A stretch of DNA of 64,000 nucleotides from Obrimoposthia wandeli (GCA_977020255.1 CDROCS010006690.1:1-64000), one strand, 5' to 3'; positions 2,973 to 48,370 are shown, numbered from the stretch's first letter. Numbers and translations: made by a program. Notes: generated by a model not told the origin, from the letters alone.

Positions 2973-4195
2973 TCATATCTTGATTGGAGGCGGAGGTAAG
3001 TCTAATTCCACTTCCTCCATGATGGGTGTGTCACAGCATCGCAATCCTTCGCATTTTCGTCGTACTCTTGGGCATACTTGACTGCCTTTTACGCACACGA
3101 TTGTCAATAGAACCACTGCTGTTGACACTACGGCCATTCCAATTAGGGCATTGACCGCCGTTATTCCGCTGTCTGATGATTTATAATCATACTTCATTTT
3201 GTTGTTTGTCGGTTCGAATGACATTTCCATGGGTTTTGATCGGTTTCCATGTATTATGTCCGATTTTCTAAAAATTCGGGGATTTGGGTGTTTTGTTTCT
3301 GATGGAACAGGTATTATTATTTTGGATTGGAAATGATGTTTGGGATCTAGTGGGATCGTTCCCCTCACTCTTGTCCTCTTAATAATTGTACTTTGGTTTC
3401 TGGGATTTAGCTCTTTTTCTTTCGCTTCTGTCTTTGTTCTGATCACTGTCGGTTTTTTGGAATGGCGTTTACTTTCGATTACCTTTGCCTTCTTTTTTGA
3501 CTAGGATTGGTCTTTTTGGGAATGATTTTCTGGGTTTGATACTTATACCGTATCTACGAAATCGACGGTTCTGGTATCTTAGAGTTATGTAGAATATTTC
3601 ACCTGTTATTATCATGATTATGGTCGAGGTCTCTGTAGTATTACTGGAAATTCGATTACACAGACATTCTGTGTTAAAATGTGGTACTAACATTTGGCTT
3701 TGGATTTCGAATCTGATTCCGCCATCTGGGTTGGGACACATTACTGTTACTCTGTCGGTCTCAGCAATCTGAAAAATATCCTAACGGAATTCCATACGGC
3801 TTTACGTCGTCAACCTGTGATTATACTCCTGTCGACAATTTTCCAGAAGCGCTCATCTCTAGGTAATATTGATGACTGTGTTCGATACTTTGGATAATCA
3901 GCTTCCTCTTTGATATTGTTATCCGTAGGTATAACACTCTTTCATGATACAATAATATTAAATTGTAAACGGGTGTATATTGGTCGATTTTTATTCTGAC
4001 CTGTCGGATGACATACAATTTCTGATCGATATTATCAGTTGCTGACGTCTGTAGATGAATGTCTACTACGTGATTTGTTTTTAGAAGGGGGATTTCTATG
4101 TATACTGCCCGTATTACGTCTTATCTCCATTTACTGATCATGATCTCATAACTAGCCTTGGTAGTGGTGATTTGTATGATCAGCATGATTCCTAT
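2973..4195 (-). pseudogene. Putative type I membrane protein, broken by stops and frameshifts
   Basis: Signal-like IIGIMLIIQITTTKA near 4150-4190. Fragments 3821-4018, 3469-3741 and 2973-3446 follow, the last with TM ALIGMAVVSTAVVLLTIVCV and a PPPP tail. Confidence 0.45.
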
Positions 4196-5105
4196 GATCG
4201 TTCGATTCTAAACTCAGGAACTTCAATGAAACAAGTCAAATTACTCATATAGTACGGTCTTTCCTCGATGTGTTCATATATCGTTGGCTGGTACTCTGGT
4301 GCTGGTTCATCTAAAAATGGTGGTCTTGGTATAATTGTGTTGAATTTTTGTAAGTTCATTTGACCTGTTCGTCTTGCGAGATCATGCCGTTTCTTTTTGA
4401 TCTCAATTCTAACTTTGTACAACAAAACAAGATGAGTAATATTAATATTATAAATCCAATGATCAGTGCGAGTATTGGATTAATCAATTCTAGAATACCG
4501 TAACGTACTGCTGGTATTCCTTTACTCTTGATGGTTAATATTTTAAATTTGTGTGCACTTTGGTTGGATATGTCACTGAAAGTACTATTTTAGTTTGTCC
4601 AAATGTGTAGTCTTCACATGTGACAACATCAATTCCATAATGTCTATTAAGTGTTTTCATTTCGGTCAGCTGGAACTATACATATCCGTCCTGGACATCC
4701 TTTTACACACATGATCATTACAGCTTTACTGTAGGATGTCTTGATTATTTCTAGGGTGTTGTCTAGATTTCTCAAATGTAGATTATATTCGGATAATGTC
4801 ATCATTTCAGCTTTACTGGTCGGCATGGCTTGTAGTACCAATCCAATTACTACTCCATAAATCAATCCTTGTGCAACGGTGCACAGGGCCTTGACTGACC
4901 TTTTGCAAAGGGTTTTAATTATCAATCGTTTGAGAGATATCTGTTTCTGATTAGATCGTTTTGTTATCTGTCGTTGTTTTGACATCTCCTCGATTCCATT
5001 TCTTCCGATAATTAACTGTACCGGTTTACCTTGTATCGTCAACTTTCCGAATCCATTTTTGGCGGACAAGCATGTTTTATGTCCTTCCATCGTTTCAATT
5101 ATCAC
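4192..5105 (-). pseudogene. Putative type I membrane protein, broken by frameshifts
   Basis: Signal-like GLIYGVVIGLVLQAMPTSKA. A frame shift near 4665 gives an ectodomain ending in TM ILALIIGFIILILLILFCC (about 4430-4490). ORF 4192-4425 is a basic and Tyr/Pro-rich tail. Confidence 0.5.
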
Positions 5106-7702
5106 TCTCTTACTTCATACTCACGTGTTTTGATGACATCGCCATCGAATATATACGTTGGTCCTTTTGTATCAGCATCTTTTTGTATTTCCTTTACAAC
5201 TCGTTTTCTTCGCTTGCATCCAGCGAATGTTGTTGATATTCGGTCAAGTGTGCGCTGTCGGTCAGCTTCGTAATCTATTCGAAATTGATTCAGTATTCTG
5301 TTTTGTGGGTAAAATATCGCTTCATTTACTATATTGTCCTCGATCCTTTCGTCTAGATACACAAGCACTTTGTTCGTTGGTCCATTTGGTCTTTTCATCT
5401 TTACAAACTGAAATCTTTTACTGTCGGTTCTCATAGATCGAAGACATTTTCGGATGATCCACACATCAATTAGTCCTAACAACACTAATAGCATCATCAG
5501 TGCCGGTGTATGGTACTGTGTGGTGTAGTTGTGGATTTCGTTGAACCAGGAACTATTTCCGTGGTTGGAGCCTATCTCCTGTGCTCCCGTTATCGGCATT
5601 AAACAGCTTAACAAGCCTATCGCTAGCAATCTTTGGTATTGAAAGCTGGGCACTGTTGTTGTAGCTTCATTTGTTTCTCGTTGTTGTTTCCTCTTTTCGG
5701 TGTATTTCTCTATTTCTCGAACGAGTAACGGTTTGAATTCCGTATTTGGTCTATTCTGTTTGATGTAGACCATCGCTTCTTCTGGCGTGTGACCATGGTA
5801 CTCTACCAACAAGGATACACCTATGGTAGGCGCTAACATTGTACCTTTTTTCTGATATATCAGAACGCCGTTTCCTTCTGTGACTTCAGCTTGGATGGTT
5901 TGAGTCAATTTCGTCAGATGTTGTTGTGCATCGTTTATCTCTCGATTGGAAGCATGTATGTATCGAGTGGTGTCATCTTCAGTATTTTGACATAGACTAA
6001 TTATCTCGTTTCCGACTTCGACAATGTTGATTACTCGGTTGATACTGTGGAACTTTAATCCAGCAGTGTCTATATCTCCTGGATGACATAAAAATACTTT
6101 TGGCATTATCTGTGTAATTTTGTCGACTCCGGCTAAAAATAACCCGGTCAATGATAATGCTTGGAGGAAATTCTTTTCCTTTGGATCCTCAGGAATGTCG
6201 TCCATCCGTCTTTGTTCTTGCAACAGAAGTTGGTAATTTGCCAACTGTCCCAAAAAATTAAGATTTGGGTTTGCAATACTTCTTCTCTCCTGTAGGTATT
6301 TTAGCGCTTCTAGTACCTGCATTCGTCTAGTCTTTATTAGGTATGCTAATACTAGAGTTGCTGATCGAGAAATTCCTTTCTGACAATGTACTAACACTTT
6401 TCCTTGGTTCCGGAGTTCTCTGTGAAGTATTTCGTTTGTTTCTACAAACCATTCGAGAAGATTAGCGTCCATTGAGTCTTTTACTCTTAATGTCATAGCT
6501 CTGATTGTCTGATATTGTGATTTATGACTCATTGTAACGTTGATCACGTATGTTATCCCTTGTTCCAACAGTTTCTTTTCATCTGTTGCATCTTCCACAT
6601 TTCCGAGGTATAACTTATTTGGAATGATCTCACTCATTGGTGGCATTAATTCTGACTCTTCAAGTTTTAGTCTTTCTAATCTCTTCTCTATCTGTTCGTC
6701 GATGTTAGTTAGTTTTGCCAGTTTCTTTCCTCTCAGCATTCGTATTGCTGGAGAGGTATTCATCTTTGTCTCTGATGTCTGTTCCTTTGTTGAGTCTTCT
6801 TCCGACTCGGTCTCTTCTGCAGATTTAATTCGTCTTTCTTGTATATTCTGTTTCACGAATTCTATGTTTTGTCTTTTTCTGCTCTCTTTAGCGAATTCAA
6901 CCTCCATGGTTCTTCCGAATCGCTCTATTATGTTATCTTCGGATTCTGTTGATTCTGTATCGTTACTTTCCGGTTCGCTGTCTTCACTAGACTCGCTCGA
7001 AGGGTATTCTGGTATGTCTGTCTGAACTGAAATTAATGAAGGTGTTAGAATAATTGGATTGATTTCCCCTTCGTATTTGTGAATCGGATACGGTATTACA
7101 CTATCTTTAAGTATCTCAACTTGGAACTGTGCTCCATAGCACATGACAATTGTTTCCAATTTACCCATGATGGACAATCCATCAAAATAGGTAACATTCA
7201 GCTTAGATATCGGTGTCTTCGCATAATTAATTAAGTTTACTCGTATCTCAGTTGATGACGGCCATCGATGTTTTAGTAAAATTATAATTTCGTCGTTTAT
7301 CGATGTAATTACACTTGGTGCGGATGATACTATTTCGGCATGATATTTTGGCTGGTTTGAAGTTGTTACTTGTTCTCGGATCATATTGATTCTTTGTGGT
7401 TTTTTATTTTTAGCTTCCCACTTCCGGTATCCGCTGTCAATGCGTAATTCTGCCGTTGCTTTGATGATTTTATTGTTAGTCACTTCCGGATGGGTTGGCG
7501 AATGGAATCCTTCTATTACGCTCAACCTTACAGATACTTCCGTTTGATCTGTGTCTAACCGGTGAGATTCTGGTATACAACATACAATTGTCTTTCCATC
7601 AAAGTATTTGGTGTCCATCTGACAAATTATCTTTTCAGTGTCAGCGTCGATTAATTGGACTCTCATGATATCTCTTTTCCCATGTGAATTACGTAATACC
7701 AT
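5102..7702 (-). CDS. 866-aa accessory ORF: YFDG repeats, acidic linker, dual-specificity phosphatase, pseudophosphatase, signal/TM segments
   Basis: KLYLGN...ITYVINVT...D...VLVHCQKGISRSATLVLAYL...RRSIANPNLNFLGQL at 6230-6637. A second DSP-like copy at 5700-6122 has IYQKKGTMLA in place of HCxxGxSRS. Confidence 0.9.
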   Translation of the reverse strand: MVLRNSHGKRDIMRVQLIDADTEKIICQMDTKYFDGKTIVCCIPESHRLDTDQTEVSVRLSVIEGFHSPTHPEVTNNKIIKATAELRIDSGYRKWEAKNKKPQRINMIREQVTTSNQPKYHAEIVSSAPSVITSINDEIIILLKHRWPSSTEIRVNLINYAKTPISKLNVTYFDGLSIMGKLETIVMCYGAQFQVEILKDSVIPYPIHKYEGEINPIILTPSLISVQTDIPEYPSSESSEDSEPESNDTESTESEDNIIERFGRTMEVEFAKESRKRQNIEFVKQNIQERRIKSAEETESEEDSTKEQTSETKMNTSPAIRMLRGKKLAKLTNIDEQIEKRLERLKLEESELMPPMSEIIPNKLYLGNVEDATDEKKLLEQGITYVINVTMSHKSQYQTIRAMTLRVKDSMDANLLEWFVETNEILHRELRNQGKVLVHCQKGISRSATLVLAYLIKTRRMQVLEALKYLQERRSIANPNLNFLGQLANYQLLLQEQRRMDDIPEDPKEKNFLQALSLTGLFLAGVDKITQIMPKVFLCHPGDIDTAGLKFHSINRVINIVEVGNEIISLCQNTEDDTTRYIHASNREINDAQQHLTKLTQTIQAEVTEGNGVLIYQKKGTMLAPTIGVSLLVEYHGHTPEEAMVYIKQNRPNTEFKPLLVREIEKYTEKRKQQRETNEATTTVPSFQYQRLLAIGLLSCLMPITGAQEIGSNHGNSSWFNEIHNYTTQYHTPALMMLLVLLGLIDVWIIRKCLRSMRTDSKRFQFVKMKRPNGPTNKVLVYLDERIEDNIVNEAIFYPQNRILNQFRIDYEADRQRTLDRISTTFAGCKRRKRVVKEIQKDADTKGPTYIFDGDVIKTREYEVRE

Positions 7703-7887: not shown

Positions 7888-9396
7888 TTAATAAAGCGCT
7901 GCGACTAGTGTATTCCCGTCATAGTATGACACTCTAAGTTCGCACAGAAATTCGTTTGTCAGTGCATCTTTCACAATGACTTCTTTCGCCACATCTGTTG
8001 GTTGTGTTTTTTCAAAAACAACTATTATCTCTTCGTCTTCTTCTAATATCTCTTGTGGTGCGATGTGTCGGATTACTTCCTTTTCCTCTTGGTACTTCAT
8101 TCTGAGCATACCAATTCTCGCTGGTTTTTTCTCGCTACCACTCGTCATCATGTTTATGTAGTTCTGATCACTTACCATTCGTGTAAGTTTAATGGTATTG
8201 GTATTCGATTTCGATTTCTGTGATCTTAACTCATATCGTGACGCATTATCTTTATTTGGTACTAATTTGCATCGATTTGCATGTACAATCATCGGTTCCT
8301 TGTTCCGATTCTCTTCGTTGATTACTTTCAAATTTGTTGAGGTTGTCTGGATCACCTTGTATGGTCCTTTGTATGGTCTATGAAGTTTAAACGATAGACC
8401 TGGTTCGATGACTGGATAAAATATCATCACTTGATCTCCGACTCTAAATTCATGCGGTTTTGCTTTTTTGTCGTATTGTTCCTTGTAACCTTCTTGATTG
8501 AATTTCAACTTCAATCCGGCTTTGGTCCAAGCATCTTGTAACCTTTCCTTCATGACGACAATGTATTGTTCAGTTTCTAGGTACTGAGATGTTGGCTCGG
8601 TCCACTCCAGATCCATTGGCATATTGTTCTGTCTGAGATACATCAGATAGAATGGTGTGTGACCCGTCGCCTCTCGAACTGAATTCCTGTAAGCATATAA
8701 ACATGAAGGTAAATATTTATCCCAATCCTCTTGCTTGTCTGAGCAATAGGATTGTACCATCATACATAAAGTTTTATTAAACCTTTCCACCAGACCATCT
8801 GTCTGTGGGTGATATGGTGAAGTTTGTAACTTCATGATTCCGAATATCTTCGATACTGCTTTTATGACTTCTCCAGTGAAGTTCTTACCTTGATCCGTTA
8901 ACAATTTTCTAGGCACTCCGTATCGAAATATTATCTCTTCTACTAAGATTTGTGCTATTGTTTCAGCCTTCTGGTTCTGCATGGGATATGCTTCTACCCA
9001 TCTCGTCATGTAATCCGTAAATACTATGACATACTTGTTTCCTTTACTTGATTCTCTCAATGGTCCCAATATATCCATCGCTGTGAATTCCATTGGTGCC
9101 AAGGGAACTGGCATTGGTTTCAGTGGAACTTTAGTACGAGTTCCGGTGTCTTTTCTGGTTAAACATACTTTACATTGTTTACACCATTGTTTTATGTCGT
9201 CTTCCATACCATCCCAATGGTACTTCTCTTTGATTCTGGCTATTGTCTTTCGCCCTGACAGATGTCCTCCTAGTGTTCCGTCGTGATACTGGATCATCAC
9301 TGCTGTTTTCAATGACTTCGGAATTACTACTACTATCTTTCCGACATTATTGACAATATACAAGATGCCTTCTTTTATCGAGTATTTTTTCGTCAT
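7888..9396 (-). CDS. pol: Integrase with C-terminal extension
   Basis: HHCC (HDGTLGGH...CKQC), DILGP, TDQGKNF, YHPQTDGLVERFN and GPY/F (YKGPYKV). Confidence 0.95.
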   Translation of the reverse strand: MTKKYSIKEGILYIVNNVGKIVVVIPKSLKTAVMIQYHDGTLGGHLSGRKTIARIKEKYHWDGMEDDIKQWCKQCKVCLTRKDTGTRTKVPLKPMPVPLAPMEFTAMDILGPLRESSKGNKYVIVFTDYMTRWVEAYPMQNQKAETIAQILVEEIIFRYGVPRKLLTDQGKNFTGEVIKAVSKIFGIMKLQTSPYHPQTDGLVERFNKTLCMMVQSYCSDKQEDWDKYLPSCLYAYRNSVREATGHTPFYLMYLRQNNMPMDLEWTEPTSQYLETEQYIVVMKERLQDAWTKAGLKLKFNQEGYKEQYDKKAKPHEFRVGDQVMIFYPVIEPGLSFKLHRPYKGPYKVIQTTSTNLKVINEENRNKEPMIVHANRCKLVPNKDNASRYELRSQKSKSNTNTIKLTRMVSDQNYINMMTSGSEKKPARIGMLRMKYQEEKEVIRHIAPQEILEEDEEIIVVFEKTQPTDVAKEVIVKDALTNEFLCELRVSYYDGNTLVAALY

Positions 9397-10412
9397 TTCA
9401 TCATTTCATCTCCTTTCACCAACAATTCTTTGATTAGACTCAGTTCTTCATCTTCTTTCTGTTCTTTGATGATCTCTTTGTCTATTTTACCCGTCTTTAG
9501 CAAAATCGTCAGTAGATTTGCTTCTCCTTTTTGGTCATTGGTTTCATCTTCTTCTGGAATGATGTTTCCTTTTTCATCTACATTTGTCAATCTCGATAAA
9601 CAATCTGCGTTGCCATTCGACTTTCCGGTTCTATAACGGATTTCTAGATCGAATTCGGCCAATTTTAGAAACCATCTGTTTAATCTACTCATCTCATCTC
9701 TATGTTTATACAAGAACTGTAGTGGTTTGTGATCTGTATATAGGAATACTTTTTGTCCTAGCAAGTAGTGTCTGTACTGTCTACATGAATACACTATGGC
9801 TAGACATTCCTTTTCGATAACAGAGTATCCTCTTTCGGCTCTGTTTAATCCTCTACTCGCATACGCGATGACGTGTTCTCTTCCTTCGTCATCCTCTTGT
9901 CCCAATACTGCTCCTACAGCATAGTTACTTGCATCTGTCATAAGTATGAATTGTCGGTTTATATCTGGAAACGCTAATATTGGTGCTTTTATCAGTCTTT
10001 CTTTTAAATGCTCGAACGCTTGTTGGGCTTCTTCTCCCCATATGAACTTCTCATCTTTTCTCGTCAACTTTCTCAATGGTGTTGCTATATCTGAAAAATG
10101 TTCAACAAATCGTCTATAATAATTCGCCAGACCTAAAAAACTCTGTATCTCCTTAACAGTCTTTGGCGCTAAATGCGCTTTTACTTTCTCGATCTTTGCT
10201 GGATCAGGTCGAATGCCTTCTTTCGATACTATATGTCCTAAAAATGTTACTCGCTCTTTAGCCCATTCGCATTTTGTAGGTTTAACTTTTAATTTAGCGT
10301 TTTCCAGTCTTTTAAATACAACTTCAAGATTTTTTAAATGTTCTTCGAACGTTTTCGAAAATATTATTATGTCATCGATATAAACCATCGTGTTTGCACG
10401 ATGCGAGTACAA
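9393..10412 (-). CDS. pol: Reverse transcriptase C-terminus and RNase H (frameshifted from upstream ORF)
   Basis: VYIDDIIIFS, FLGHIVS, SFLGLANYYRRFV, TDASNYAVGAVL, EKECLAIV, TDHKPL, NADCLSR. Confidence 0.95.
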   Translation of the reverse strand: MYSHRANTMVYIDDIIIFSKTFEEHLKNLEVVFKRLENAKLKVKPTKCEWAKERVTFLGHIVSKEGIRPDPAKIEKVKAHLAPKTVKEIQSFLGLANYYRRFVEHFSDIATPLRKLTRKDEKFIWGEEAQQAFEHLKERLIKAPILAFPDINRQFILMTDASNYAVGAVLGQEDDEGREHVIAYASRGLNRAERGYSVIEKECLAIVYSCRQYRHYLLGQKVFLYTDHKPLQFLYKHRDEMSRLNRWFLKLAEFDLEIRYRTGKSNGNADCLSRLTNVDEKGNIIPEEDETNDQKGEANLLTILLKTGKIDKEIIKEQKEDEELSLIKELLVKGDEMMK

Positions 10413-13400
10413 AATTCATGCAACGCTGAAATGTTGCTGGAGCTCCTGTCAGTCCGAATGGCATCTTTTCGCATTCGTATAATCCATCTCCGCAGGAAAA
10501 GGCTGTTTTGTGTTTATCCTCTTCCTCTATCTCGATTTGCCAGTATCCACTCTGCAAATCTAATGTTGTAAAATAATCTGAATTACCCAATTTATCGAGC
10601 ATCTCTTCGATTCTAGGTAATGGATACACATCTTTTCTTGTGATCTTGTTCAGTTCTCTGAAATCTATACAGAATCTCATTTTCCCATCCTTCTTTTTTA
10701 CCAACACCACAGGTGCTGAGAATGGCAAAAAACTCGGTCTAATTACTCCTGTTTTAGACATATCTTCAATCTGACTTTTTACTTCATCTTGTAACTGTAA
10801 TGGTACTCGATATGGTCTTCTTCTGACTACTTTGTCTTTTGTCAGTGGTATTGTATGTTTTATGACAGGTGTTTCTCCTATGTCATATGGATTTTTTGCA
10901 ATTACTTTCGGAAATTTATGTATTAGATCAAGTAATTGTTTCTTTTCTCTAGTTGTCAGTCTTTCTGATTGGATTACTATTTCTTCGTAATCATTCGTAT
11001 CTTTATCGAGTTTCATAGTGCATACAGTGGAATTCTCCATCTGTGCTATCTTTCCCAACCTCATTCCTCTGTATAATAGGATGTCATTGTTGGTTGTATT
11101 CATCAGTCTAACTGGTATTTTGTGGTTTTCGATCAGGCATACTGTACTCACAACTGGTAATTCGTATTTCTCTATGAAATCTCGTGATGGTTCGAACACA
11201 ACTGGTCCTTTATCTTCTGATAATGTGTGACCTTGAATAAGAAATTGCGATCTTTTACCGATTTTTATAGGATTCTCTATAATTACATCAATTTGGTTTA
11301 TTTGTCTGTTTGATGTGCTATCCTTCAATCTTGGATCTTGTAAATCAATACTTATCCCTTTAAGTTGTGATAGTACATCCATTCCTAAAATTGTAGGTTC
11401 AGGACATTCTTTCATGATTCTAACTGGTATAGTGATCGTATTACGTCCAATTATAAATGTACATGGTAATATTCCCGTTACTTTTACAGGGTCTCCATTG
11501 ACCGATACCAAGAATTCGTCTGGTTCTGCCATTGTTCGTTTCTGTTCCTCTGTCAAACAGTCTTCACTTACTATCGAAGCTACAGCACCTGTATCAATTA
11601 AGGCTTTTACTCTTAAATTATTTACTCTAATGATAGCTGCTGGTCGCTGTGCTCCATTTATGTTTCCCATATGGTATATTGTATTTATCGAATTATTACA
11701 CTCTGTCAGTCCACTTCCTATGTTTGGATAGTGAAATCTAATGTTTCTCACTTGTCGATCTATTATTCTTCGACAAATCGGACATGATACCATTTCATTC
11801 GCACATCTCCGACATGTTCTTACATGTCCGCATGGTAGAAAGGCAACTTCTATTTTGTTGACCATGCAAACTGCGCATTCCGGATCTTCTAGTACGTATT
11901 CTAGTTCATTTATGTACTCTTTCTCTTTTGTTTCAATTGTACTGTCATCTTTATCTCGCAGTAATTCAAAAATCGATCCGTATCCGTTTCGCGTAGTTTT
12001 TATTTTTAATTCTACCAATTCTCTGATTCTTTCTGCTTCTTTTGGATATAACCTTCTCACGAATGACACTACCGGTGTGTCTTGTTGAGCCAAAATCTCT
12101 TTCCGTGTGATTTGGTATTCGATTATACATTCGGTTTTCTGTTCTTTTTGCTTTATTTTGTTTTTAAAAGTACAAAATTCGCAAAATTCATGATGTAAAA
12201 TTTTCTTAGGTAGCTCAAGAGTATATCTGTCGATAATTCGTTCTTTTTTACACTTGTGGCATTTAATTACGTCTTTACCATCCTTTTTTATAGCAAAAAG
12301 TCCCTTTTTTGCCAATTTTTTAAGTCTTGGGTCTTCGAAGGTTATTTCTCGATACTGTTCGTCACATTCGTTCACTTCTCGCATAACTTCGAATATATCT
12401 TCAATTCGACTATTCGTTATTACTCTACCTGTTATTAGAGCTGATTCTCCTTTCGGAATCCCGTCACTGTAATCGAAATCGGGTGCTTTTCCCGTTTGGA
12501 TTTCTGGTACGTTTGACGTTTTCAGTTTCAAAAGAAATGGACAATTTGGTGCATCTCTTTTATGACGTCTCATTGGGTTTTCATTCTGTTCCCATTCTCT
12601 AAACTTTACTCTACACCATACGCATCGTACTACTATCTCCTGACCATAACTGCTTGTCGCGTTTAACATTTCTAAACCTGATCTTGCCATTTTACGTGCC
12701 ATTCCTTTTGAATAGTACTGTTCTAATATATTTCGTCTCTTTCTCTCGAATCTCATGGGATCCCTTTCTGACAGATTCACATATGTTATTTTTCTCCTCG
12801 TCATCTCTTGTGGTCCGAGGTTTACGTTTTTGTAGTGAAGTATCGACTTTACTAGCGCTTCCTGTTTTTTGTCTTGGTACGAATTTCCCATACGGAACGT
12901 AGTGTATTTTTCCTTTTCGACTATAGGTCCTCTCAACATTTTTATCTCTCTCACTGAACTGTCATTCTTATAACTCTTGTTGTTTGGTAGTATAATTATT
13001 CCTTCAAACATTCGTATTACGTCCATCCCAATCATGACTGGACTACCGCAATCTGTGAATATTCTAGCATTTAATTGTAATGCTCTTCCATCGATATTCA
13101 ATGAACATTTCAGTGTTCCTTCCGACACTACATCTGTACCATTCACGTTAACAAATGTCTGTTTTCTAGGACATACTTCTCTTAATTCTTTTGATGACAA
13201 GATTTCTTTACTTAGTACTGATACTGCTGATCCGGTATCAACTTCGGCAAGATATTCTCTTCCGTTCAATGTTACTGCTACTTGTGGTGGAGCATTTGGA
13301 TTCTCATTTGATATTCTAGATTTCAGAATTCTTCTGGAATTATCTTTTTTGTCTTTTTCCTCTGCTTGTGGAATTTCACTGTAGCTCACTTTAGGCCATC

Positions 13401-16400
13401 TTATCATTAAGATGCCTCTCTTGAATTTTTCCTTCTCTTCCTTCAATTCCTTCATTGGATATAGGTTTAACGCCACTTCTTCCTTGTCTGGTAATGGAAT
13501 CTTTGGTTTTCCTGGTATCTTTGCATATACTTCTGGACTATCATTATCGTCGTCGTTGTCGTCTCGATAGTTTCTTGGTTCTCGCATCATGGTTCTCGTT
13601 TGGTGTTGTTCCTTCTTGAGGGCTCGCAACTCGTTCTCGTGATGATGATGCATTAGATATTTTGCTAAAAATGGAAAACATCCAATTATAAGTTGCCAGG
13701 TGATTCCGGTTATCCTGTATAAACTATACGTAGACAACACCTGGGCTATAATTACCTGCACAAATTTAATTATAACATAAATACCTATGATACCCGAAAA
13801 TAATTGTCCTAAGACAAGGAATTTCCCCCACATCTTTCTAAGTGTCTGATGTGCTGCTTCCTTGAAATGACTTGGCGATAATAACATATCGAAATTCGCA
13901 TATCTCGCTCCTGGCGGTAATGCTCGATGTACCATCTCCGTAAGTACTCTGGCTCTTCTTACTGGAAACATTATTTCGTTCCACGCCGCTTTTAAATCTT
14001 TTTCATTGTACAATCCTGCGTTCTCCATATTTTCCATCGCTTGGAATTTCATTTTACCTTTAAGATTCGTCATTCTTATCATCGCTGGGGTTGTCGTTGG
14101 CTTCCGATCAGGTAACGTTATCCATAGATTATTCGTCATCTGATATTCAGGTGCCATTATATTAGAGCAGCTGATTTCTTTAGTTGGAGTGTCTTTTGGA
14201 AGTAACATTCTCGTGATTGGTTCAACAAAAAGATCTTTTAAATTATACGTTACTGCCAATTCGCTCGTACATCGATCTGTTTTTCTCAACTGTACCTCTA
14301 CTTTATTACACTTGTAAGTATATAATACTTCTCCCATGGTTTTAGCAAATACTCCTTCATCCAAGGGTAATAATGGTGCTACCATGTCTGGATTCGTAAT
14401 AGCTAATGCTAATTTTGTTCTTACGATCTCTTTGTTTAACTGGCAATCTCTTTCGATCATCATCCGATATAACTGTTCCATTTGCATCAATCCTTTATGA
14501 TAATAGAAATCAATTTTATTATTAAAATACGTGTGTAGCTGCATATCTTTTGGTTTTAGCTTGGTTTCTGCCAATGCTATTGCTTCTTTAGACAAAACTA
14601 TTCCTGGATAGTTTGTAGTACTAACAGTCATTCCGCATCGCGCTTTGTTTCTCTTTTTAATAAATATCAATCCTTCTTCTATTGATGTTGCCATTAACAG
14701 TGTAGGTGTTTTTGTCATTGGAATTGGTCTTGTTTCATTTAGCAATCCTTTTCCTACTTTATTATACAGGAACCCTTCTCCATCTTTATTATACAGGAAT
14801 CCTTTTATTTTATTAAAGCTAATCTCTTTCAAAAATACTAAAGAGCATTGCTTCGGATTTATGTTATACACAATTGTGGATTCACCTGTAAAACAAGATG
14901 CATCTGTCATTTTACATTCTGGATACTTCATCATTAGTTGTGTCTTTTTATCAAAATTGGCGGTCCATGTTTTTAATTCGATTTTGTAAGTTACATCCAT
15001 TACTAACTCAGATACTTTGGTTGCACTCACGTTTTTTGTTTCTCCGTCACAAGATCCATCAGCCCATCGTTGTCCGACTCTCGTGACTGTTTCGTATCGT
15101 CTCACTCCAATTTTTACTTCAGGTTTGTAATTCTTGTCTACCTCTATCGTTCCCGTTCGAAATGCATCTTCGCAATCTCTCGGCAAAACCTTATGTGCCT
15201 TGTACGGTGTGGTAGGTGTGATTTCTGACATAAAACTTCTATGGCCACAATAGAATTCGTGATAACTTGAATGGATTGAACATTCTTTCACTTCTACTTG
15301 TACTTTATCAACATCCTGATACACAAAGTAGTTTTCAACACCTTGAACTTCTAGTTTTGACGGTTGTGATTCTGGACAGTCTTCGCTGTCAAGCAGTGAA
15401 TACGTTTGTCCCATCTTTGGTATGCTACAGTCATATGCTATCAATCCTGATGCCTGTTGCATTCCCATGAACATTACTAACATCATCATCATCATTGTTG
15501 TGGACATATTTGGTTGATTGTTTCTCTCTTTCGGACGGTATTGTTTATTTTCCTTTTGACGATTCTCATGACATTGTTCGTCATCGTCTTCATTCATTTC
15601 CACAATGGTTTTAGCGTAGTCACTTAATTTTGCCCAACCTCCATTTTCGTCAATTCGTCTCTGTAATACATTCTCGATCAAATACATCGCTTCATTTATT
15701 CCTTGTTTGACTTCGTGAGGTTGGCTCGTTCGTTCCGTCAATTGGAAACATAGATATGTGATCGCTGTAATTAACTTTTTATTTGTAGTCTGGTTTCCAC
15801 ATAGTCTCGCTAAAACTTCACCGTCATAAAATCTATCTATCGATGCATGGTATACATGATTCGCGGTCATTCTCTTTACTGCAGACATCTGTGATCTGAC
15901 TGCTTTAGTCAAATTGTCTGTTATATCGGTTGTTTCATCTCTGTACATTTTAAACAACTTCGGCTTCACTTGCCTGAGAATTCCCGTAAGTATATCTTTA
16001 CTACTTGGAGTTTCCGAATTCATATCACCTCTGATATCTTCATTCCTCTCTGCACTATACTGCTCTAATGACGCTGCTAACTGTCCAATACTTAGATGTC
16101 TCTCTTCATCAGTTTGTGGTGCTGTTAGAACATTTCGTAATATACTTTCGCCTTTTCTAGGTCTTCCAGGTCCTCTTCGAAAATACTGATACTCAGTTTG
16201 ATTCTCTCCTGGATCATACGTTTCACCATTATACTGTATCTCTTGACTTGGTCCTTCTTCATGGCCAATCTCTTCACTTTGTCGCATCATTTGCTCTGCT
16301 TGTCTATCTTTGTATGCGGCATGCCAAATTGGTGAATCCAAATCTACAATCTCGGAGACTTCGTCTTCTCCTACTAGTTGGGTTACGGTTTCGTTTTGTC

Positions 16401-16759: not shown

Positions 16760-18364
16760 CTAGTGATCTCCTTTATAATGGAACAACATATTCATTCCAT
16801 CAATTTCAAGTTTCTCAGCCAACTTTTTCCGAATCGTTTTCATTGTTTGATACACGTTAAGTTTTTCATGTATTATCTGTCCGGAAATTAATCGAAGTGA
16901 AATTTTCATCGTTCCTTTTTGGTTTGATCTCTGTACATAACGACCATAACCTTTCAGTAGTCCTCGGGGTACTTCTTTGTAACCCAAGTTATCATGACTA
17001 TGTTTAACCAATTCTGCACGCACTTCTTCCAATCGGTGCACTTTAATTGTTTGCAATTTGGCCAGAACTTCTGGAGCTTCACTCGTTTCATCTAACGGTT
17101 GATTTAACGTCTCCTTAGCTTCACTAATTATCTTTTTTACATTTTCCATACTCGTAGCATTTCTTGCTGCTTCTACATGATCAGTCATAGGTTGTGCGTT
17201 ACACGTTTTCTCTATTGGTGTCTCATACGCTTCTAATATTCTATTCATTAAATCATTCATCTCTTCTCTCGAATGTAGACTTTTCTCTTGTTTCGACAAC
17301 GTAGATGAATTTGCCATCTTTGTATGTGGTGAATCTTTAATTATTCCCAACATTCGTTCAAATTTACTATCACTATCTTCAAAATCTATTTCGCGTCGAA
17401 GCTCGGTCTCGCGATTCCTATCACTGTCATCGTTTACATAACTAAAATTTCCTTTCGGTTTCGGCGAACTCTCACGACTATTTGTCTTGTCGACATTATT
17501 ATTATTATATCTACCAGAATTATTATATCTCTCAGCTCCTTGCTGTCCTACGTAATTATTGTATCTCTCAGCTCCTTGCTGTCTATCTGCATAGTTATTA
17601 TATCTACCTGGTGACTGTTGTCTATCTGTATACTGATTATTCAGTCTCCATGGCTGTGGAGTATATCCACCACCTCTATTCCATGGCGGAGGTGAATTAT
17701 ATCCTCTATAATTATTTCCAAAATTATTATTACCGAAATTATTATTTCCAAATCTGTTAGCTCCGAACTCTTTACTTCTCGTACAATCTCTCGAATAGTG
17801 ACCCATTTGTTTACACGTGTAACACATTATTCTCCCTCGAATATCTATCTTATTTTGTTCATCTTCGAACTGTACTCGACGACTATTTTGTCTATTATCA
17901 TAGCGTCCTCTAAAATCATTTCTTCGGAAATTCGATTCAAAACCGCTTCCTCGATTATTGAATCTTCCGTCGCTATTTCCTGTATTATTTCCAAATCGAG
18001 AGTCACTTCGCTCTCCTCTGTTGGCGTTATAATTCCTATCGTCTCCTCTCCAAGGTTGGCGATTTCCTGAATTATCTCTATTAAATCTATTCCTGGAATC
18101 ATCTCTATTTCTATTCCACGAATCATTATTATTTCTACCTCTTGAATCATCTCGATTCCTGTTCCAAGACTCACTATTATTTCTACCTCTCGAATCATCT
18201 CGATTCCTACTTCGGAAATTATCTCTATTTCCGTTACTGGATTCATCTACTTTTTCAAACTTATTTTGTCCATAATTTCGATTCTGAAAATTACTCGGTT
18301 CTGTTTTATTCACGAAGACCTTTGTCTTATCGTCGTCACCTGCAGTCATTGCGTAGATTGCCAA
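16760..18364 (-). CDS. gag: Gag C-terminal part: N/R/G-rich repeats, CCHC zinc knuckle, C-terminal ubiquitin-like domain
   Basis: CYTCKQMGHYSRDC at 17783-17824. It overlaps the previous ORF by 19 nt, and one extra A in the A5 run would fuse them. Confidence 0.85.
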   Translation of the reverse strand: MAIYAMTAGDDDKTKVFVNKTEPSNFQNRNYGQNKFEKVDESSNGNRDNFRSRNRDDSRGRNNSESWNRNRDDSRGRNNNDSWNRNRDDSRNRFNRDNSGNRQPWRGDDRNYNANRGERSDSRFGNNTGNSDGRFNNRGSGFESNFRRNDFRGRYDNRQNSRRVQFEDEQNKIDIRGRIMCYTCKQMGHYSRDCTRSKEFGANRFGNNNFGNNNFGNNYRGYNSPPPWNRGGGYTPQPWRLNNQYTDRQQSPGRYNNYADRQQGAERYNNYVGQQGAERYNNSGRYNNNNVDKTNSRESSPKPKGNFSYVNDDSDRNRETELRREIDFEDSDSKFERMLGIIKDSPHTKMANSSTLSKQEKSLHSREEMNDLMNRILEAYETPIEKTCNAQPMTDHVEAARNATSMENVKKIISEAKETLNQPLDETSEAPEVLAKLQTIKVHRLEEVRAELVKHSHDNLGYKEVPRGLLKGYGRYVQRSNQKGTMKISLRLISGQIIHEKLNVYQTMKTIRKKLAEKLEIDGMNMLFHYKGDH

Positions 18365-19158
18365 TGCTGCATTATTATATTTTTCTCAATCTCTCTCGCC
18401 TTTCGTACGGCGTTATCAAAATCATTTGTATCCGATACTGCTAATAACACTTTAATATCCTTTTTCAATCCTCCTCTAAATATATCTAACAAGACCTCTG
18501 CCATTTCATTTTGGTTCCGGTCATTTTCCGCTGCTTGTGCTTCTTGAGGTACAGGAATACCGTCCTGATTTCTCATTATTCTTCTTGGGTACGCTCTTGC
18601 GGCCAAGGTTCTCAAAACATACGCGTATTCATTCACGCCTTCATCATGTTTCTGTTTCCGTTCTCTCATGAGTCGCTTATTTACTTTGGCTAAGTCTCCT
18701 AATACCAATTTTCCAATAAAAGCATTTTCCAACGTTGGCCAGTCTAAACGTTCTGCTTCTGTCAAATGTTTATACACTTCAAGTGCTAATCCGGTTAAAT
18801 GTGCCTGTACTCTGACACATTTTTCTTTATCGTTCCATCCTTGAACATCTGCACAACTCGAATATTCTGCGAGGAAGTCACAAATACTTTCCTCATCTCC
18901 TTTAAATTTTGTAATCTGCAATGATCCTGAAAAATTGGGTCTCAACGTCGCATTTAAAGCTTGTGCCAACTGCTCGGCATTCATGTCACCTACATTATTT
19001 CCTGCATTAATATCTGCTTGAGCTCCTGGGTGAGCCATATCTTCAATTATATCGTCTTCAACTATTTCTTCAATATTATTCAACGGAACTTCCTCAATCA
19101 CTACTGGATTGGCAATTTCAAATTCTTCTGGGTCTATGTCACCAAATAATTCAGTCAA
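18346..19158 (-). CDS. gag: Gag, capsid-like N-terminal part
   Basis: Retrotransposon-gag pattern KFKGDEESICDFLAEY...WNDKEKC...LTGLALEVY...WPTLENAF...RKQKHDEGVNEYAYVLRTLA...FRGGLK. First ATG at 19038. The frame is open up to about 19390. Confidence 0.85.
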   Translation of the reverse strand: MTELFGDIDPEEFEIANPVVIEEVPLNNIEEIVEDDIIEDMAHPGAQADINAGNNVGDMNAEQLAQALNATLRPNFSGSLQITKFKGDEESICDFLAEYSSCADVQGWNDKEKCVRVQAHLTGLALEVYKHLTEAERLDWPTLENAFIGKLVLGDLAKVNKRLMRERKQKHDEGVNEYAYVLRTLAARAYPRRIMRNQDGIPVPQEAQAAENDRNQNEMAEVLLDIFRGGLKKDIKVLLAVSDTNDFDNAVRKAREIEKNIIMQHWQSTQ

Positions 19159-19429
19159 ATTAAAACTGCCGGTTGAAACCGCTGATTGATCAACGTCTCT
19201 TTCTGATACGTTTTCTTCGACTCTAGTCTTTTTTGTTACTTTGTTATCTGCTTGGGGAACCTGTTCAATTCGGTTAACTTTATTATTATTTATCTCTTCC
19301 TTGGGAATCTGACTTTGTCTTCTAGTATTAAACGCGGGTCCTTTTCTATTATCCGTTGTCTTATCAATTATGTATTCGTTTACGATATCAATTTACTTAT
19401 TATTTTTTATCTTATTTCACAATTCTTGT

Positions 19430-19650
19430 TTTATGATTTTTTATCTCTTTAATTAGTTCGAGGACAGAGTCTCCCGACTTAACCTATTCAATTAATTACT
19501 TCGAGTATCAATCCACTCGATTCTCACTTTATCAAATTTATTTACGATTTTATCTTTTTAATTAGTTCGAGGACAGAGTCTCCCGACTTAACTTATTCAA
19601 TTAATTACTTCGAGTATCAATCCACTCGATTCTCACTCTATCAAATTTAC
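19430..19650. repeat. About 109-bp tandem duplication in the retroelement leader
   Basis: attagttcgaggacagagtctcccgacttaac... starts at both 19452 and 19561. Confidence 0.9.
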
Positions 19651-19654
19651 TGAC

Positions 19655-20045
19655 TCGAAGAACAAATCTACCCGATTTCTCAAAACTTATCAACTTCTTA
19701 ACTTCGAGGAACAAATCTACCCGATTTCTCAAAAACTTATCAAATTCTTAACTTCGAGGAACAAATCTACTCGATTTCTCAACACTTATCAAATTCTTAA
19801 CTTCGAGGAACAAATCTACTCGATTTCTCAACACTTATCAAATTCTTAACTTCGAGGAACAAATCTACTCGATTTCTCAACACTTATCAAATTCTTAACT
19901 TCGAGAAACAAATCTACCCGATTTCTCAACACTTATCAAATTCTTAACTTCGAGGAACAAATCTACTCGATTTCTCAACACTTATCAAATTCTTAACTTC
20001 GAGGAACAAATCTACCCGATTTCTCAACACTTATCAAATTCTTAT
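19655..20045. repeat. 49-bp tandem repeat in the leader (about 8 copies)
   Basis: Unit cttcgaggaacaaatctactcgatttctcaacacttatcaaattcttaa, with the period checked at 19801/19850. Confidence 0.95.
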
Positions 20046-20065
20046 CTCAATTTACTTATCTTTTC

Positions 20066-20325
20066 TTCTGAAACTTATTCTCAATTGTCTATATTCTTCT
20101 GCTGAAACTTATTCTCAATTTATCTGAAACTTATTCTCAATTTATCTGCAACTTATTCTCAATATCTGAAACTTATTCTTAATATCTGAAACTTATTCTT
20201 AATATCTGTAACTTATTCTTAATATCTGTACTTATTCTATTTACCTGAAACTTATTCTCAATTATCTGAAACTTATCCGAACTTATTCTATTTACCTGAA
20301 ACTTATTCTCAATTATCTGGAACTT
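20066..20325. repeat. About 20-24-bp imperfect tandem repeat in the leader
   Basis: The core ctgaaacttattctcaat recurs about 11 times. Confidence 0.85.
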
Positions 20326-20356
20326 ATCTACGTGAATTCGCTGTGTCCGACGAGCT

Positions 20357-20375
20357 ATCCTCACTCGGGGCACCA
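20357..20375 (-). promoter_or_regulatory. Primer-binding site, elongator tRNA-Met-like
   Basis: Minus strand TGGTGCCCCGAGTGAGGAT lies 8 nt inside the LTR end. It resembles the complement of the metazoan elongator tRNA-Met 3' end (TGGTGCCCCGTGTGAGGAT). Confidence 0.8.
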
Positions 20376-20586
20376 CTTTAATATGTTGGGGTTTCTATAC
20401 GAAACTTGGTACAGATCCTCTGAAATGCGGAGGGCCCCAACGTGAGTTCGAATAGAAGCAGGTCTTAAAGTTGGTCGTGGCCTACTTAGTGTTATGGTTG
20501 CCTATCTCTTGTACTATCTGAAGGTATTTGATTTGATGTCTCTTAATTTGAAGGTGTAAAACAACTGGTTCTAATGTAGGAAATCG

Positions 20587-20592
20587 TTTATT
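20587..20592 (-). promoter_or_regulatory. Candidate polyadenylation signal in LTR
   Basis: AATAAA on minus, about 200 nt before the LTR 3' end. Confidence 0.5.
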
Positions 20593-20811
20593 GGTAATTC
20601 ACAAATCTAAAACACAACAATACGTTTATGTACGTATTTTCTAAAAAGTACAGTAAAAATTCCTAAGACTTCTGTAAGTCTCTATAACCAGTGGGGATGA
20701 ACCACGTATCGATTTTACGTTAAGGGTAATCGAGATTTTAGAGTTGTTCCTCTAACTCTCTTGACGACAATATTGTAGGGCAATTACTTCTTTAACAATT
20801 ATTGTAGTTCA

Positions 20812-22100
20812 AAAGGGGCAAACAATTCTACTAAAATATTGTGGTTTAAAATGGGTAAACAATTCTACTAAATTATTTTGGTTTACAATGGGCAAACAAT
20901 TCCACTAAATATTGTGATTTAAAATGGGCAACACAATTCTATTAAAATATTGTGATTTTTAAAATGGGCAACACAATTCTATTAAAATATTGTGATTTTT
21001 AAAATGGGCAACACAATTCTATTAAAATATTGTGATTTAAAATGGGCAACACAATTCTATTAAATATTGTGATTTAAAATGGGCAACACAATTCTATTAA
21101 AATATTGTGATTTAAAATGGGCAACACAATTCTATTAAAATATTGTGATTTAAAATGGGCAACACAATTCTATTAAAATATTGTGATTTAAAATGGGCAA
21201 CACAATTCTATTAAAATATTGTGATTTAAAATGGGCAACACAATTCTATTAAAATATTGTGATTTAAAATGGGCAACACAATTCTATTAAAATATTGTGA
21301 TTTAAAATGGGCAACACAATTCTATTAAAATATTGTGATTTAAAATGGGCAACACAATTCTATTAAAATATTGTGATTTAAAATGGGCAACACAATTCTA
21401 TTAAAATATTGTGATTTAAAATGGGCAACACAATTCTATTAAAATATTGTGATTTAAAATGGGCAACACAATTCTATTAAAATATTGTGATTTAAAATGG
21501 GCAACACAATTCTATTAAAATATTGTGATTTAAAATGGGCAACACAATTCTATTAAAATATTGTGATTTAAAATGGGCAACACAATTCTATTAAAATATT
21601 GTGATTTAAAATGGGCAACACAATTTTATTAAAATATTGTGATTTAAAATGGGCAACACAATTCTATTAAAATATTGTGATTTAAAATGGGCAACACAAT
21701 TCTATTAAAATATTGTGTTTTAAAATGGGCAACACAATTCTATTAAAATATTGTGATTTAAAATGGGCAACACAATTCTATTAAAATATTGTGATTTAAA
21801 ATGGGCAACACAATTTTATTAAAATATTGTGATTTAAAATGGGCAACACAATTCTATTAAAATATTGTGTTTTAAAATGGGCAACACAATTCTATTAAAA
21901 TATTGTGATTTAAAATGGGCAACACAATTCTATTAAAATATTGTGATTTAAAATGGGCAACACAATTCTATTAAAATATTGTGATTTAAAATGGGCAACA
22001 CAATTCTATTAAAATATTGTGATTTAAAATGGGCAACACAATTCTATTAAAATATTGTGATTTAAATGCAAACAATTCCACTAAAATATTGTAGTTTAAA
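20812..22100. repeat. 38-bp tandem minisatellite inside LTR (about 33 copies)
   Basis: Unit aaaatgggcaacacaattctattaaaatattgtgattt, with the period checked at 21121/21159. Copies degenerate at both edges. The same array ends at 1-180 in the other LTR. Confidence 0.97.
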
Positions 22101-22200
22101 ATGCTATCAACCTCGTCGCGTCTCACCGATTTGATCTTAGATATCCGAGATGGTCCTTGCCTTTTGTGGGATATCCGAGCTTGTGTAGACCTAGTCGACC

Positions 22201-22330
22201 GATTTGAGGATTTGTGAGCTAAGTTGGTTGATTTGAGGATTTGCAAGCGAAATTGTCTGTTTTGAGGATTTGCGAGCTAAATTGTCTGATTTGAGGATTT
22301 GCGAGCTAAATTGTCTGATTTGAGGATTCA
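22201..22330. repeat. 29-bp tandem repeat inside LTR
   Basis: Unit gatttgaggatttgcgagctaaattgtct, 4-5 copies. The counterpart is at about 277-455. Confidence 0.9.
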
Positions 22331-23338
22331 ATTTCCTTTCCTTTAAGCAATTAATTTCACTGATTTGAGGGTTCAATTTCCTTTCCTTTAAGCAATTAAT
22401 TTCAGGCAATCTAAATTATAGACTAAAAAATGAAATCGCCCAAATTCCTTACCTACTAACTTCTCCTCAGTCGATTGTCTATTCCGCTTTGTTTGTGTGT
22501 TCCTTCTCTTTTGTAATTGGTTTGGGCAGCGACTTTTATAGTCGATTTTCAATCAGTAATGTCGGCAGTGTGCGTGTTTGTTTCTTGGCGACTTTTATAG
22601 TCGATTGTCAATCAGCAATGTCGGGCAGCTGAAATATATTTCCTGAGCGTAAGTCCTGACAGCTGAAAAATTCAATTAATTCACGGCACGAAAATGTGCT
22701 TACCGTTTCCTTGATTGACGTTTTTCGAAGTTCCTGTTTTTCTTTTAATTACTGTTTTTTTGTTGCACTTTTGGGTTAATTAATCTAACTTTTATACATT
22801 TCACATTATACACGACCTTCGTGGTCCTCCTAATTTTTACCCTAAATTCCACTAATTTCAATTCTAAAACTAAAATTAATATTTAATTTAATTTTCAACC
22901 TTGCTTTCAAGGACTTTTATTTTAGTATTTAATCGACTAAAATATTTAAATTTCTTAATTCTCAAACCTAACACTTCTAGTAGTGTTGCTCTTTTATACA
23001 GAGCCAGGGAAAACAGAATTTGTCCAATCAGACACCGGCGGTAGAGGGAATATTCGCATCCGGGCCTGTAATCCGTCTGATCTGACCGCAAAGCTTGTAT
23101 TTTGAACTGGGACGGGGAAAACTGGCCGAGTGAGATAAATATTCCAAAAATCAATAATGCACAGGCAGCATTTGAACTGGGACGGGGAAAACACAGCACA
23201 TATCCGTCTACACAGCAGAGGCACTATCCGACAGTTTGTCAGTTCTGCACGCACGAGATGATGACGCTGCTGCATTGATGTAACTGGTCGAACCAGGAAA
23301 CTGTAGTAACAGTTGACGATGAAATGAAAAGGGAAATG

Positions 23339-47990: not shown

Positions 47991-48370
47991 CATGGAAAGA
48001 GACAGTAAAAAGAGAAAAGTATATTATGGCAATGATAGACCACCATAGCAAATATATAGTGCTAACAGCTATCAAACGACAAGACGAAGAGACAATTATA
48101 GAAACGATACTAAAAAGTTGGATTCTTAAATTTGGCGCACCAAAGGAGATTCACGTTGGCTGTGGAAAATGTTTTGAGGCAAAAAAAGTAAGAGATCTGA
48201 TGAAAGAAAAAGGTATTAATTTAATTTTCTCAAGCCCATATCACCAGAATACAAATGGGATGGTAGAAAGACAGTTTAGGACGATAAAAGATTTCATACA
48301 CGCGAGTATGAAAGAAAGAAACTTAACAAGTTGTGCAGAGATATATAAAAATTATTCACATGACATTTGA
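47990..48370 (+). mobile_element. Gypsy-type integrase core fragment
   Basis: MIDHHSKY...KFGAPKEI...GINLIFSSPYHQNTNGMVERQFRTIK. Confidence 0.8.

Follow-up and report, generated by a model that had tools for sequence, protein, structure and literature searches.

Giant long terminal repeat (LTR) retroelements have been described from planarians under the names Burro and GYPSM1 (PMC6431247). They encode one polyprotein of ~5,000 aa in which an env related to that of mononegaviruses lies in frame between gag and pol, carry BIR and RING domains and accessory open reading frames (ORFs), and occur in thousands of copies. The element described here resembles them in all of these respects. It lies in a stretch of 64,000 nucleotides from Obrimoposthia wandeli (GCA_977020255.1, CDROCS010006690.1:1-64000), referred to below as the window, where it occupies positions 1-22973 on the − strand. 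By its sequence architecture, it is a giant, env-bearing, Burro-like Ty3/Gypsy LTR retroelement. Behind the integrase, it carries two dual-specificity phosphatase (DSP) domains, arranged head-to-tail at 6640-5702 (− strand), of which the first (DSP1) looks intact and the second (DSP2) appears catalytically dead. The kind of giant element is known; what appears to be new is the DSP as a type of cargo.

The phosphatase domains have precedents of their own. Active and inactive phosphatase folds share a chain in the D1-D2 tandems of receptor protein tyrosine phosphatases (PTPs), which have the same active-then-dead order as DSP1-DSP2, and in Cdc14 A/B, where the dead domain comes first; the present pair differs from both in subfamily. 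Among the MAP-kinase phosphatases (MKPs), MKP5/DUSP10, MKP7/DUSP16 and MKP2/DUSP4 (PMC4802042) are like DSP1 in their general-acid Asp, HCxxGxSRS loop, AYL motif and L-N-F-L docking motif, and provide its best sequence matches, whereas DSP1 lacks the rhodanese/kinase-binding domain (KBD), has a Lys in the loop, sits within a retroelement polyprotein and is paired with a dead domain. DSP2 resembles STYX and MK-STYX (PMC8622459) in having a DSP fold without the catalytic Cys, but in DSP2 the Arg and the general acid are missing too, and a predicted active DSP precedes it in the same chain; STYX lacks only the Cys, and a single change revives its activity. Baculovirus PTP2, with its MKP-like C-terminal consensus, and the bracovirus PTPs (PMC5923475) are phosphatases borne by viruses and act on invertebrate host signalling, as is proposed here for DSP1; those, however, are stand-alone genes of large DNA viruses, reportedly pro-apoptotic, rather than domains of a retroelement polyprotein. 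A search that covered literature other than the original Burro papers (Grohme 2018, Lee 2026), which could show a DSP, turned up no LTR element described as carrying a phosphatase. The word “phosphatase” has no occurrence in the main texts of PMC6431247, PMC8532177, PMC11410931 and PMC13238120.

A preliminary description of the locus had proposed an active and a dead DSP in tandem on a retrotransposon, and the evidence supports this. The peptides on which that proposal was built were located in a single − strand frame, together with further DSP peptides: IIPNKLYLG (6628), VKDS, containing the general acid (6484), and the active-site loop HCQKGISRS (6388) in DSP1, and ITQIMPKVFL (6118), INRVINI (6043), YQKKGTMLA at the active-site position (5857) and EEAMVYIKQNRP (5782) in DSP2. 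When the 898-codon window ORF was compared with the Pfam DSPc profile, two stretches passed (E = 2.3e-41). DSP1 (6215-6640, −) is an MKP-like catalytic domain with the full catalytic set, consisting of a CX5R loop (Cys at 6385-6383, Arg at 6367-6365) and the upstream general-acid Asp (6478-6476), as well as the AYL motif and an FXF-type docking motif, LNFL, from 6262. It is thus an intact-looking, predicted active class I Cys phosphatase. In DSP2 (5702-6127, −), the alignment places Asn (5947-5945) at the position of the general acid, Gln (5854-5852) at that of the nucleophile and Leu (5836-5834) at that of the phosphate-binding Arg, and TEFK stands at the site of the FXF-type MAPK docking motif.

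We considered the possibility that DSP2 does not have a DSP fold at all, which would have undone the earlier proposal. Scored with a profile built from 48 unrelated DSPs and from neither element domain, DSP2 alone reached 31 bits, compared to 4.6 for the best of 500 shuffled sequences. Its language-model features in the ESM-Atlas gave a first match of 0.95, with 190 of 256 features shared and in DSPc clusters, and the ten best named matches all belonged to the DSP clan. In a phmmer search of the PDB, 25 of the 26 matches at E ≤ 1 were DSP/PTP chains. These results indicate that DSP2 is a pseudophosphatase with a DSP fold that lacks the catalytic Cys. An AlphaFold model of DSP2 guided by a 50-row DSP alignment reached a pLDDT of 80 and matched STYX, DUSP14, DUSP5 and MKP-2 with Z scores of 17.7-17.9, and human and viral DSP folds with TM scores of up to 0.79; because the model leans on the DSP alignment, these matches are partly circular and do not constitute independent evidence. 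The single-sequence model of the tandem had a pLDDT of 37, and a predicted DSP1-DSP2 complex (score 0.53, compared to 0.64 for the control) gave no verdict and was not used as evidence. DSP1 and DSP2 are 21% identical (E = 1e-4) and may be sisters that arose by duplication inside the element, a point on which the tree was uninformative. The DSP1-DSP2 tandem was not found in longer proteins among 1,444 candidates, a weak test.

The element is abundant, with about 10^4 candidate loci. First-look searches returned 3,839 candidates with DNA, 11,424 with DSP2 protein and 14,212 with DSPc, which are not copy numbers. All scored rows matched (40/40, 150/150 and 150/150, respectively); the 40 DNA matches were at least 99% identical and the 150 protein matches 100% identical to DSP2, which disposes of the possibility that the ORF is a one-off host retrocopy. 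Contig depth summed over the DSP bins was about that over reverse transcriptase and integrase, although such depth is not a measure of copies. Low-depth pieces, mostly 95-99% alike, were found in one marine metagenome run (25 of 30 bins), and no RNA run was among the holders listed in the sequencing-run search.

Selection was assessed in two sets of copies. Set A comprised 66 copies, of which 60 were picked by DSPc score, with a resulting bias for DSP1, and six were others; set B, picked on neither DSP, took 40 loci from a list of 64 drawn up by similarity to the RNase H-integrase region. Pairwise dN/dS was calculated after codons near indels and stops had been dropped, with bootstrapping over codons, on copies that are not independent. 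Both DSP domains were present in 38 of the 40 set B copies. Of the 38 covered set B copies, 37 retain the general acid, nucleophile and phosphate-binding Arg of DSP1, and its catalytic H/C/R is present in 66/66 copies in set A, subject to the picking bias. Conservation of the dead site, which the earlier account had named as a check, held as well: the replaced loop was found in 63/63 covered set A copies and the three replaced residues in 38/38 in set B, one of which had a stop in the loop. In set A, dN/dS was 0.10 for the integrase core, 0.11 for DSP1 and 0.10 for DSP2 (0.07-0.15), compared to 0.20 for the adjoining domain X and 0.31 for the acidic linker; the set B values were 0.11 for DSP1, 0.07 for DSP2 (0.04-0.14), 0.09 for X and 0.25 for the linker, which is the loosest part measured.

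Alleles of DSP2 present in at least three set A copies comprised 58 synonymous and 11 non-synonymous changes, and 13 of its 142 codons had shared amino-acid variation, compared to 50 with shared silent variation; for DSP1, 24 codons had shared amino-acid variation. Changes confined to single copies were near neutral in set A (0.85), while the younger set B copies had single-copy ratios of ~0.3 in both DSPs. Constrained shared alleles combined with near-neutral single-copy changes are what one sees when selection operates while an element transposes and its copies decay once inserted. By these measures, both DSPs are under purifying selection as strong as that on the integrase core, acting through replication of the element. 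Since DSP2 is constrained like the integrase with its replaced residues fixed, it is presumably kept for something in its dead state.

The preliminary description had placed the pair in an ORF downstream of the integrase. This assignment has to be revised, as the separate ORF past the integrase results from breaks in the window copy, which is interrupted in several places. In the frame maps of other copies, some frames begin at the window equivalent of 19392 and some end at 2976, ~5,470 codons apart, and the longest open frame listed over the RNase H-integrase region has 5,497 codons. The breaks sit at different places in different copies, and the stop that follows the window integrase was found in none of 64 other covered copies. 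Among 116 loci examined, with only those holding both anchors counted, integrase and X were in phase in 64/75, X and DSP1 in 73/85, DSP1 and DSP2 in 90/94, and DSP2 and the next part in 80/87. Since integrase, X and the DSPs are in phase in most copies, the pair is part of a polyprotein of ~5,470 codons, which runs ~1,600 codons beyond the integrase and through the DSP pair. A programmed frameshift between integrase and cassette, suggested by a break common to several close copies, was rejected in view of the 64/75 copies in phase.

The preliminary description had also linked the pair to MKP/VH1-type phosphatases acting on MAPK and STAT signalling. The MKP affinity of DSP1 stands on its matches and its LNFL motif, while the VH1/STAT link found no support here. 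Among 1.84 billion representatives, the best single-domain matches to DSP1 were named DUSP10 or DUSP4 or carried a rhodanese domain, and its top 18 PDB matches were all MKP catalytic domains, with DUSP10 first (E = 6.5e-25). Of 100 loci, 91 have LNFL as their FXF-type motif. The pattern PN-[FL]NF[LM] occurred in only 45 of 343 collected DSP domains, among them all five named DUSP10 domains and the one named DUSP4. No Rhodanese match was found in the DSP ORF (Pfam, E ≤ 0.1), while the best relatives of DSP1 have one. Near-length and representative searches returned solely cellular-type DUSPs and multi-DSP proteins at 24-48% identity; Pfam detected no retroelement domains in 26 of these, one of which has DDE_1, and no relative of the pair was found in metagenome contigs. 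Docking through D-motifs near DSP1 was considered and rejected, generic D-motifs numbering 5 in 898 aa compared to 14 in 2,113 elsewhere, with no enrichment.

Published work on MKPs indicates what such a domain could do. The catalytic domains of MKP5 and MKP7 bind and dephosphorylate JNK1 through the FXF-type motif, without a KBD, and Leu is the MKP5 variant of this motif; MKP5 needs its KBD for p38, and the MKP7 catalytic domain lowers UV-induced apoptosis (Liu et al., PMC4802042). The element itself is Burro-like and has BIR and RING domains, a context that the preliminary description does not mention and that frames the function of the DSPs: according to a second-hand account (PMC13465017), the IAP of Burro1 protects planarian stem cells from apoptosis. 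On balance, we lean towards a reading in which a captured, KBD-less MKP domain would lower JNK, and perhaps p38, signalling where the element is active, beside the IAP module, with DSP2 as an interaction module. The catalytic half of an animal MKP would have been captured as an intron-less piece. The polyprotein would be cleaved upstream by the element proteases and behind DSP2 probably by host signal peptidase, and the released DSP1-DSP2 unit would be cytosolic, perhaps tethered to the endoplasmic reticulum (ER), because a signal-peptide-like segment follows DSP2. DSP1 would then dephosphorylate stress MAPKs, most likely JNK, since the MKP5 and MKP7 catalytic domains need only the FXF-type motif for this kinase. 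Stress and apoptotic signalling would be lowered in cells with replicating element, complementing BIR-RING. DSP2 would serve in targeting, DSP1 regulation or scaffolding, and not as a phospho-substrate trap; the D2 domain of receptor PTPs offers an analogy. The arrangement suggests that the element may dampen host cell-death signalling alongside an anti-apoptosis domain.

Several points weigh against this reading. The position in frame by itself selects against stops and frameshifts, and among the 46 holders of the integrase motif in 60 older copies, a frame without stops spans both integrase and DSP1 in only five, which fits insertions in decay. DSP1 is just 43-48% identical to its best matches. 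Of the checks named in the preliminary description, the DSPc profile was passed clearly, but the tree (66 domains, 148 columns) was weak: it placed DSP1 as sister to an MKP-containing group with a support of 0.72, outside the MKP subgroups, and left DSP2 as a long, unplaced branch. DSP1 has a Lys two residues past the Cys, where MKPs mostly have Ala (Lys in 8 of 343 domains). A host MKP donor gene was not found in searches in which element copies filled every scored row. The FXF-type motif occurs in every MKP (PMC4802042), and therefore does not single out JNK. Finally, the MKP-like baculovirus phosphatase is pro-apoptotic (PMC5923475); a viral MKP-like enzyme can thus promote apoptosis, and the effect of DSP1 might go in either direction.

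More tentatively, the dead DSP might have replaced the KBD of the captured MKP as a new targeting module, forming a two-armed anti-death kit with the IAP, and the slot behind the integrase might hold interchangeable cargo, fused in frame, throughout a broader clade of giant elements; we regard this extension as possible but doubtful. Relatives of the integrase (48-59% identical) are followed in the same frame by different cargo, which in two cases (P0275 and L156) is a receptor-like membrane protein with a hydrophobic leader, an ectodomain and a membrane anchor, and in a third (P0276) a protease; further downstream, L156 has a RING ORF. No DSP was found in the 120 integrase relatives listed, which are fragments, so that downstream absence covers only 5 kb of L156 (three ORFs scanned). 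No integrase relative was found in viral contigs. Behind the integrase and membrane cargo of L156 (2684-6448), we also observed, besides the RING ORF, a 707-codon ORF without a Pfam match that by eye is DEDD-type exonuclease-like.

Among the alternatives, an unlikely but still serious one is that the pair serves the life cycle of the element, with DSP1 acting on Gag, integrase or the Env tail or being packaged, and DSP2 having a structural or assembly role. Some poxvirus and baculovirus phosphatases have such life-cycle or particle roles. The fusion of the pair right behind the integrase and ahead of membrane segments would fit, as would the lack of a KBD, the DSPs of large DNA viruses that are the nearest feature look-alikes of DSP2, and purifying selection, which fits any replication benefit. 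DSP1, however, has kept an MKP-type docking motif in 91/100 loci, and relatives whose integrase is 54-59% identical carry other cargo, with no DSP in the stretches seen; the phosphatase is therefore no core need of the clade.

It is considerably less probable that DSP2 holds phosphorylated MAPK as a STYX-like trap or competitor, shielding the kinase or sequestering it, as the preliminary description had implied by its comparison with STYX-type substrate traps. The retained fold and strong conservation of DSP2 agree with such a role; STYX is the best structural match, tied with other DUSPs, and binds ERK without a KBD (PMC8622459). Both STYX and MK-STYX retain the Arg, however (HCX5R changed to G or FSX5R, PMC8622459), while every covered copy of DSP2 has other residues in place of the phosphate-binding Arg, general acid and FXF motif (63/63 for the loop; 38/38). 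Without any of the three catalytic residues and with TEFK for the docking motif, DSP2 is therefore not expected to act as a STYX-like phospho-trap.

We give equally little credence to the idea that DSP2, or both domains, are passengers, a decayed duplicate being kept in frame and folded only so that the polyprotein is not spoiled. DSP2 does lie between conserved parts of one frame, and its long, unplaced branch points to a past phase of fast change. Its dN/dS is nevertheless the same as for the integrase core and lower than for the linker, which shares its frame (0.10 vs. 0.31; 0.07 vs. 0.25), fewer of its codons vary than in DSP1 (13 vs. 24), and the replaced loop residues are themselves fixed. 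An origin of DSP1 from a large DNA virus or other non-animal source, with RNA, lipid or another non-MAPK protein as substrate, is very improbable: the tree, the viral Atlas neighbours of DSP2 and the virus-derived env would accommodate it, but the top matches among the representatives are rhodanese-bearing or DUSP10/DUSP4-named animal proteins and the top PDB matches MKP catalytic domains.

The remainder of the element agrees with its Ty3/Gypsy assignment: LTR ends of the form TG...CA, a tRNA primer site and the order protease, reverse transcriptase, RNase H, integrase. It has a 19.3 kb internal region and two LTRs of ~2.6 kb (~24.5 kb in total), and thus falls short of the Burro length of >30 kb (PMC6431247). 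Two further differences from Burro (PMC6431247) are the two proteases that flank the IAP module and the part of the polyprotein, DSP pair included, that extends beyond the integrase. For MATH, BCL2-like, ankyrin, dUTPase or SUMO-like domains, Pfam gave no match in the element at E ≤ 0.1; in Burro, motifs vary between families and some were found only by HHpred (PMC6431247). No named Burro was among the best 120 integrase matches, all of which were unnamed or spider or fish elements. Burro is further defined by an RT/IN clade shared with Burro1 and by hosts in Dugesiidae or Geoplanidae; the present host is placed as a user of mitochondrial code 9. The element is accordingly called Burro-like on its architecture, and membership in Burro is not established.

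All features lie on the − strand. The 5′ LTR (20384-22973; 2,590 bp, TG...CA) contains a 38-bp tandem array, and the 3′ LTR (1-1052) is cut by the contig start; the outer part common to both is 90.8% identical (39 mismatches and 46 gap positions in 925). The 19-nt primer-binding site (20357-20375) is complementary to the 3′ end, including CCA, of the host tRNA-Met(CAT), with 54 matches compared to 0 for the reversed control; seven tRNA-Met genes were found in L152 and none was called in L151. The spacer between LTR end and primer site is 8 bases (20376-20383), as in four other copies, which is longer than usual. Long tandem arrays of the same tRNA-Met(CAT), with a ~284-bp period, are present at C2252:485-11858 and C2837:586194-598329. 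Further tandem arrays of 109, 49 and 20 bp occur in the leader (19430-20330), the 38-bp array extending over 20780-22100 in the LTR, and array length in leader and LTR varies among copies. At C370, ~2646800-2650000 (L029), a second copy seems to have inserted into another copy's LTR or beside it, giving a nested arrangement.

The polyprotein runs in the order Gag (CCHC), fusion glycoprotein, protease, BIR, RING, protease, reverse transcriptase, RNase H, integrase, X, acidic linker, DSP1, DSP2 and hydrophobic segments. The Gag region (16763-19392; two frames in the window copy) has one CCHC knuckle (~17780-17824), its N-terminal part, without a Pfam match, being assigned by position. The env-like fusion glycoprotein, in frame between Gag and Pol (13552-15447; Monjiviricetes_fusion, PF24664, E = 1.9e-94), starts at a GLIAYDC motif. 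Aspartic protease 1 (13018-13281) is followed by the IAP-like module (11755-12702), with a BIR (12702-12532; E = 2.9e-10, one stretch), a degenerate Cys/His pattern that by eye resembles a second BIR (~12261-12180) and a RING (~11886-11755; E = 2.2e-11), and then by aspartic protease 2 (11356-11650). Both proteases, on either side of BIR-RING (11356-13281), have an intact DTG, and the IAP could be excised as a unit. Reverse transcriptase and RNase H (9396-10701) are broken near 10400 and 9400 in the window copy and precede the integrase (7891-9405; H2C2, rve and C-terminal domain). Domain X (7100-7702) is conserved and has no Pfam or PDB match; Atlas scores of 0.81-0.85, below the recognition threshold, provide a lead that it possibly consists of two IPT/TIG-like beta domains or repeats. 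As a speculation, X might mimic Rel/NFAT-type IPT domains and so act as a decoy. The acidic Ser/Glu-rich linker with a helical segment occupies 6644-7099.

Right after DSP2, hydropathy indicates a hydrophobic segment, signal-peptide-like by eye, a short spacer and a transmembrane segment (5450-5635). The C-terminal part (2976-5449), with more hydrophobic segments, is fragmented in the window copy and has no significant Pfam match. In the translation of L027 (P0273), residues 442-497 (window ~4390-4520) comprise a transmembrane segment, then Cys-Cys, then a basic stretch and a part rich in Pro; non-significant Pfam hints point to WBP-1 (E = 0.056) and to the p10 fusion protein of reovirus (E = 0.065). 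After the polyprotein end are two small ORFs (1338-2927), each with a RING finger at its start (E = 3.1e-08, and E = 7e-04, under the Pfam cut-off) and with matching ORFs in three other copies.

Outside the element, the window contains an HTH-bearing ORF that may be a piece of a DNA transposase (37562-38338, −), a 389-codon ORF without a Pfam match (29506-30672, −), a strongly G/A-skewed stretch with long ORFs (45368-48370, +) and a host-gene RhoGEF exon (63269-64000, +). In the assembly, full-length COX1 in genetic code 9 is present in at least eight near-equal-scoring copies in long contigs (C109, C652, C736, C2590, C2533, C3456, C5570 and C626), probably nuclear mitochondrial insertions; C3456 also holds an element copy. 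At positions that a second COX1 of the assembly fixes, AAA stands for Asn in the multi-copy COX1, ATA for Ile and AGA for Ser, which corresponds to NCBI table 9, the code of flatworms and echinoderms; the style of the sequence and the parallel with Burro make a flatworm host probable. A second animal mitochondrial COX1 (C5352) fits table 5. Seemingly bacterial contigs (C506, C253, C665, C372 and C400) have a stop-free COX1 and many single-exon rhodaneses, and a rhodanese search of the genome returned mostly bacterial-looking single-exon matches.

Large DNA viruses carry signalling phosphatases, and the element would extend this to LTR retroelements. Burro1 indicates that the cargo of giant elements can alter the survival of host stem cells, and DSP1 would provide another, enzymatic means of acting on this pathway. 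DSP2 would be a cleanly defined natural pseudoenzyme, in which all catalytic residues are gone while constraint remains integrase-like over many lineages that replicate, and which must presumably bind something. If the proposed role of the pair is true and the element is expressed in stem cells like Burro1, the JNK/p38 control of regeneration in the host would depend in part on a transposon enzyme.

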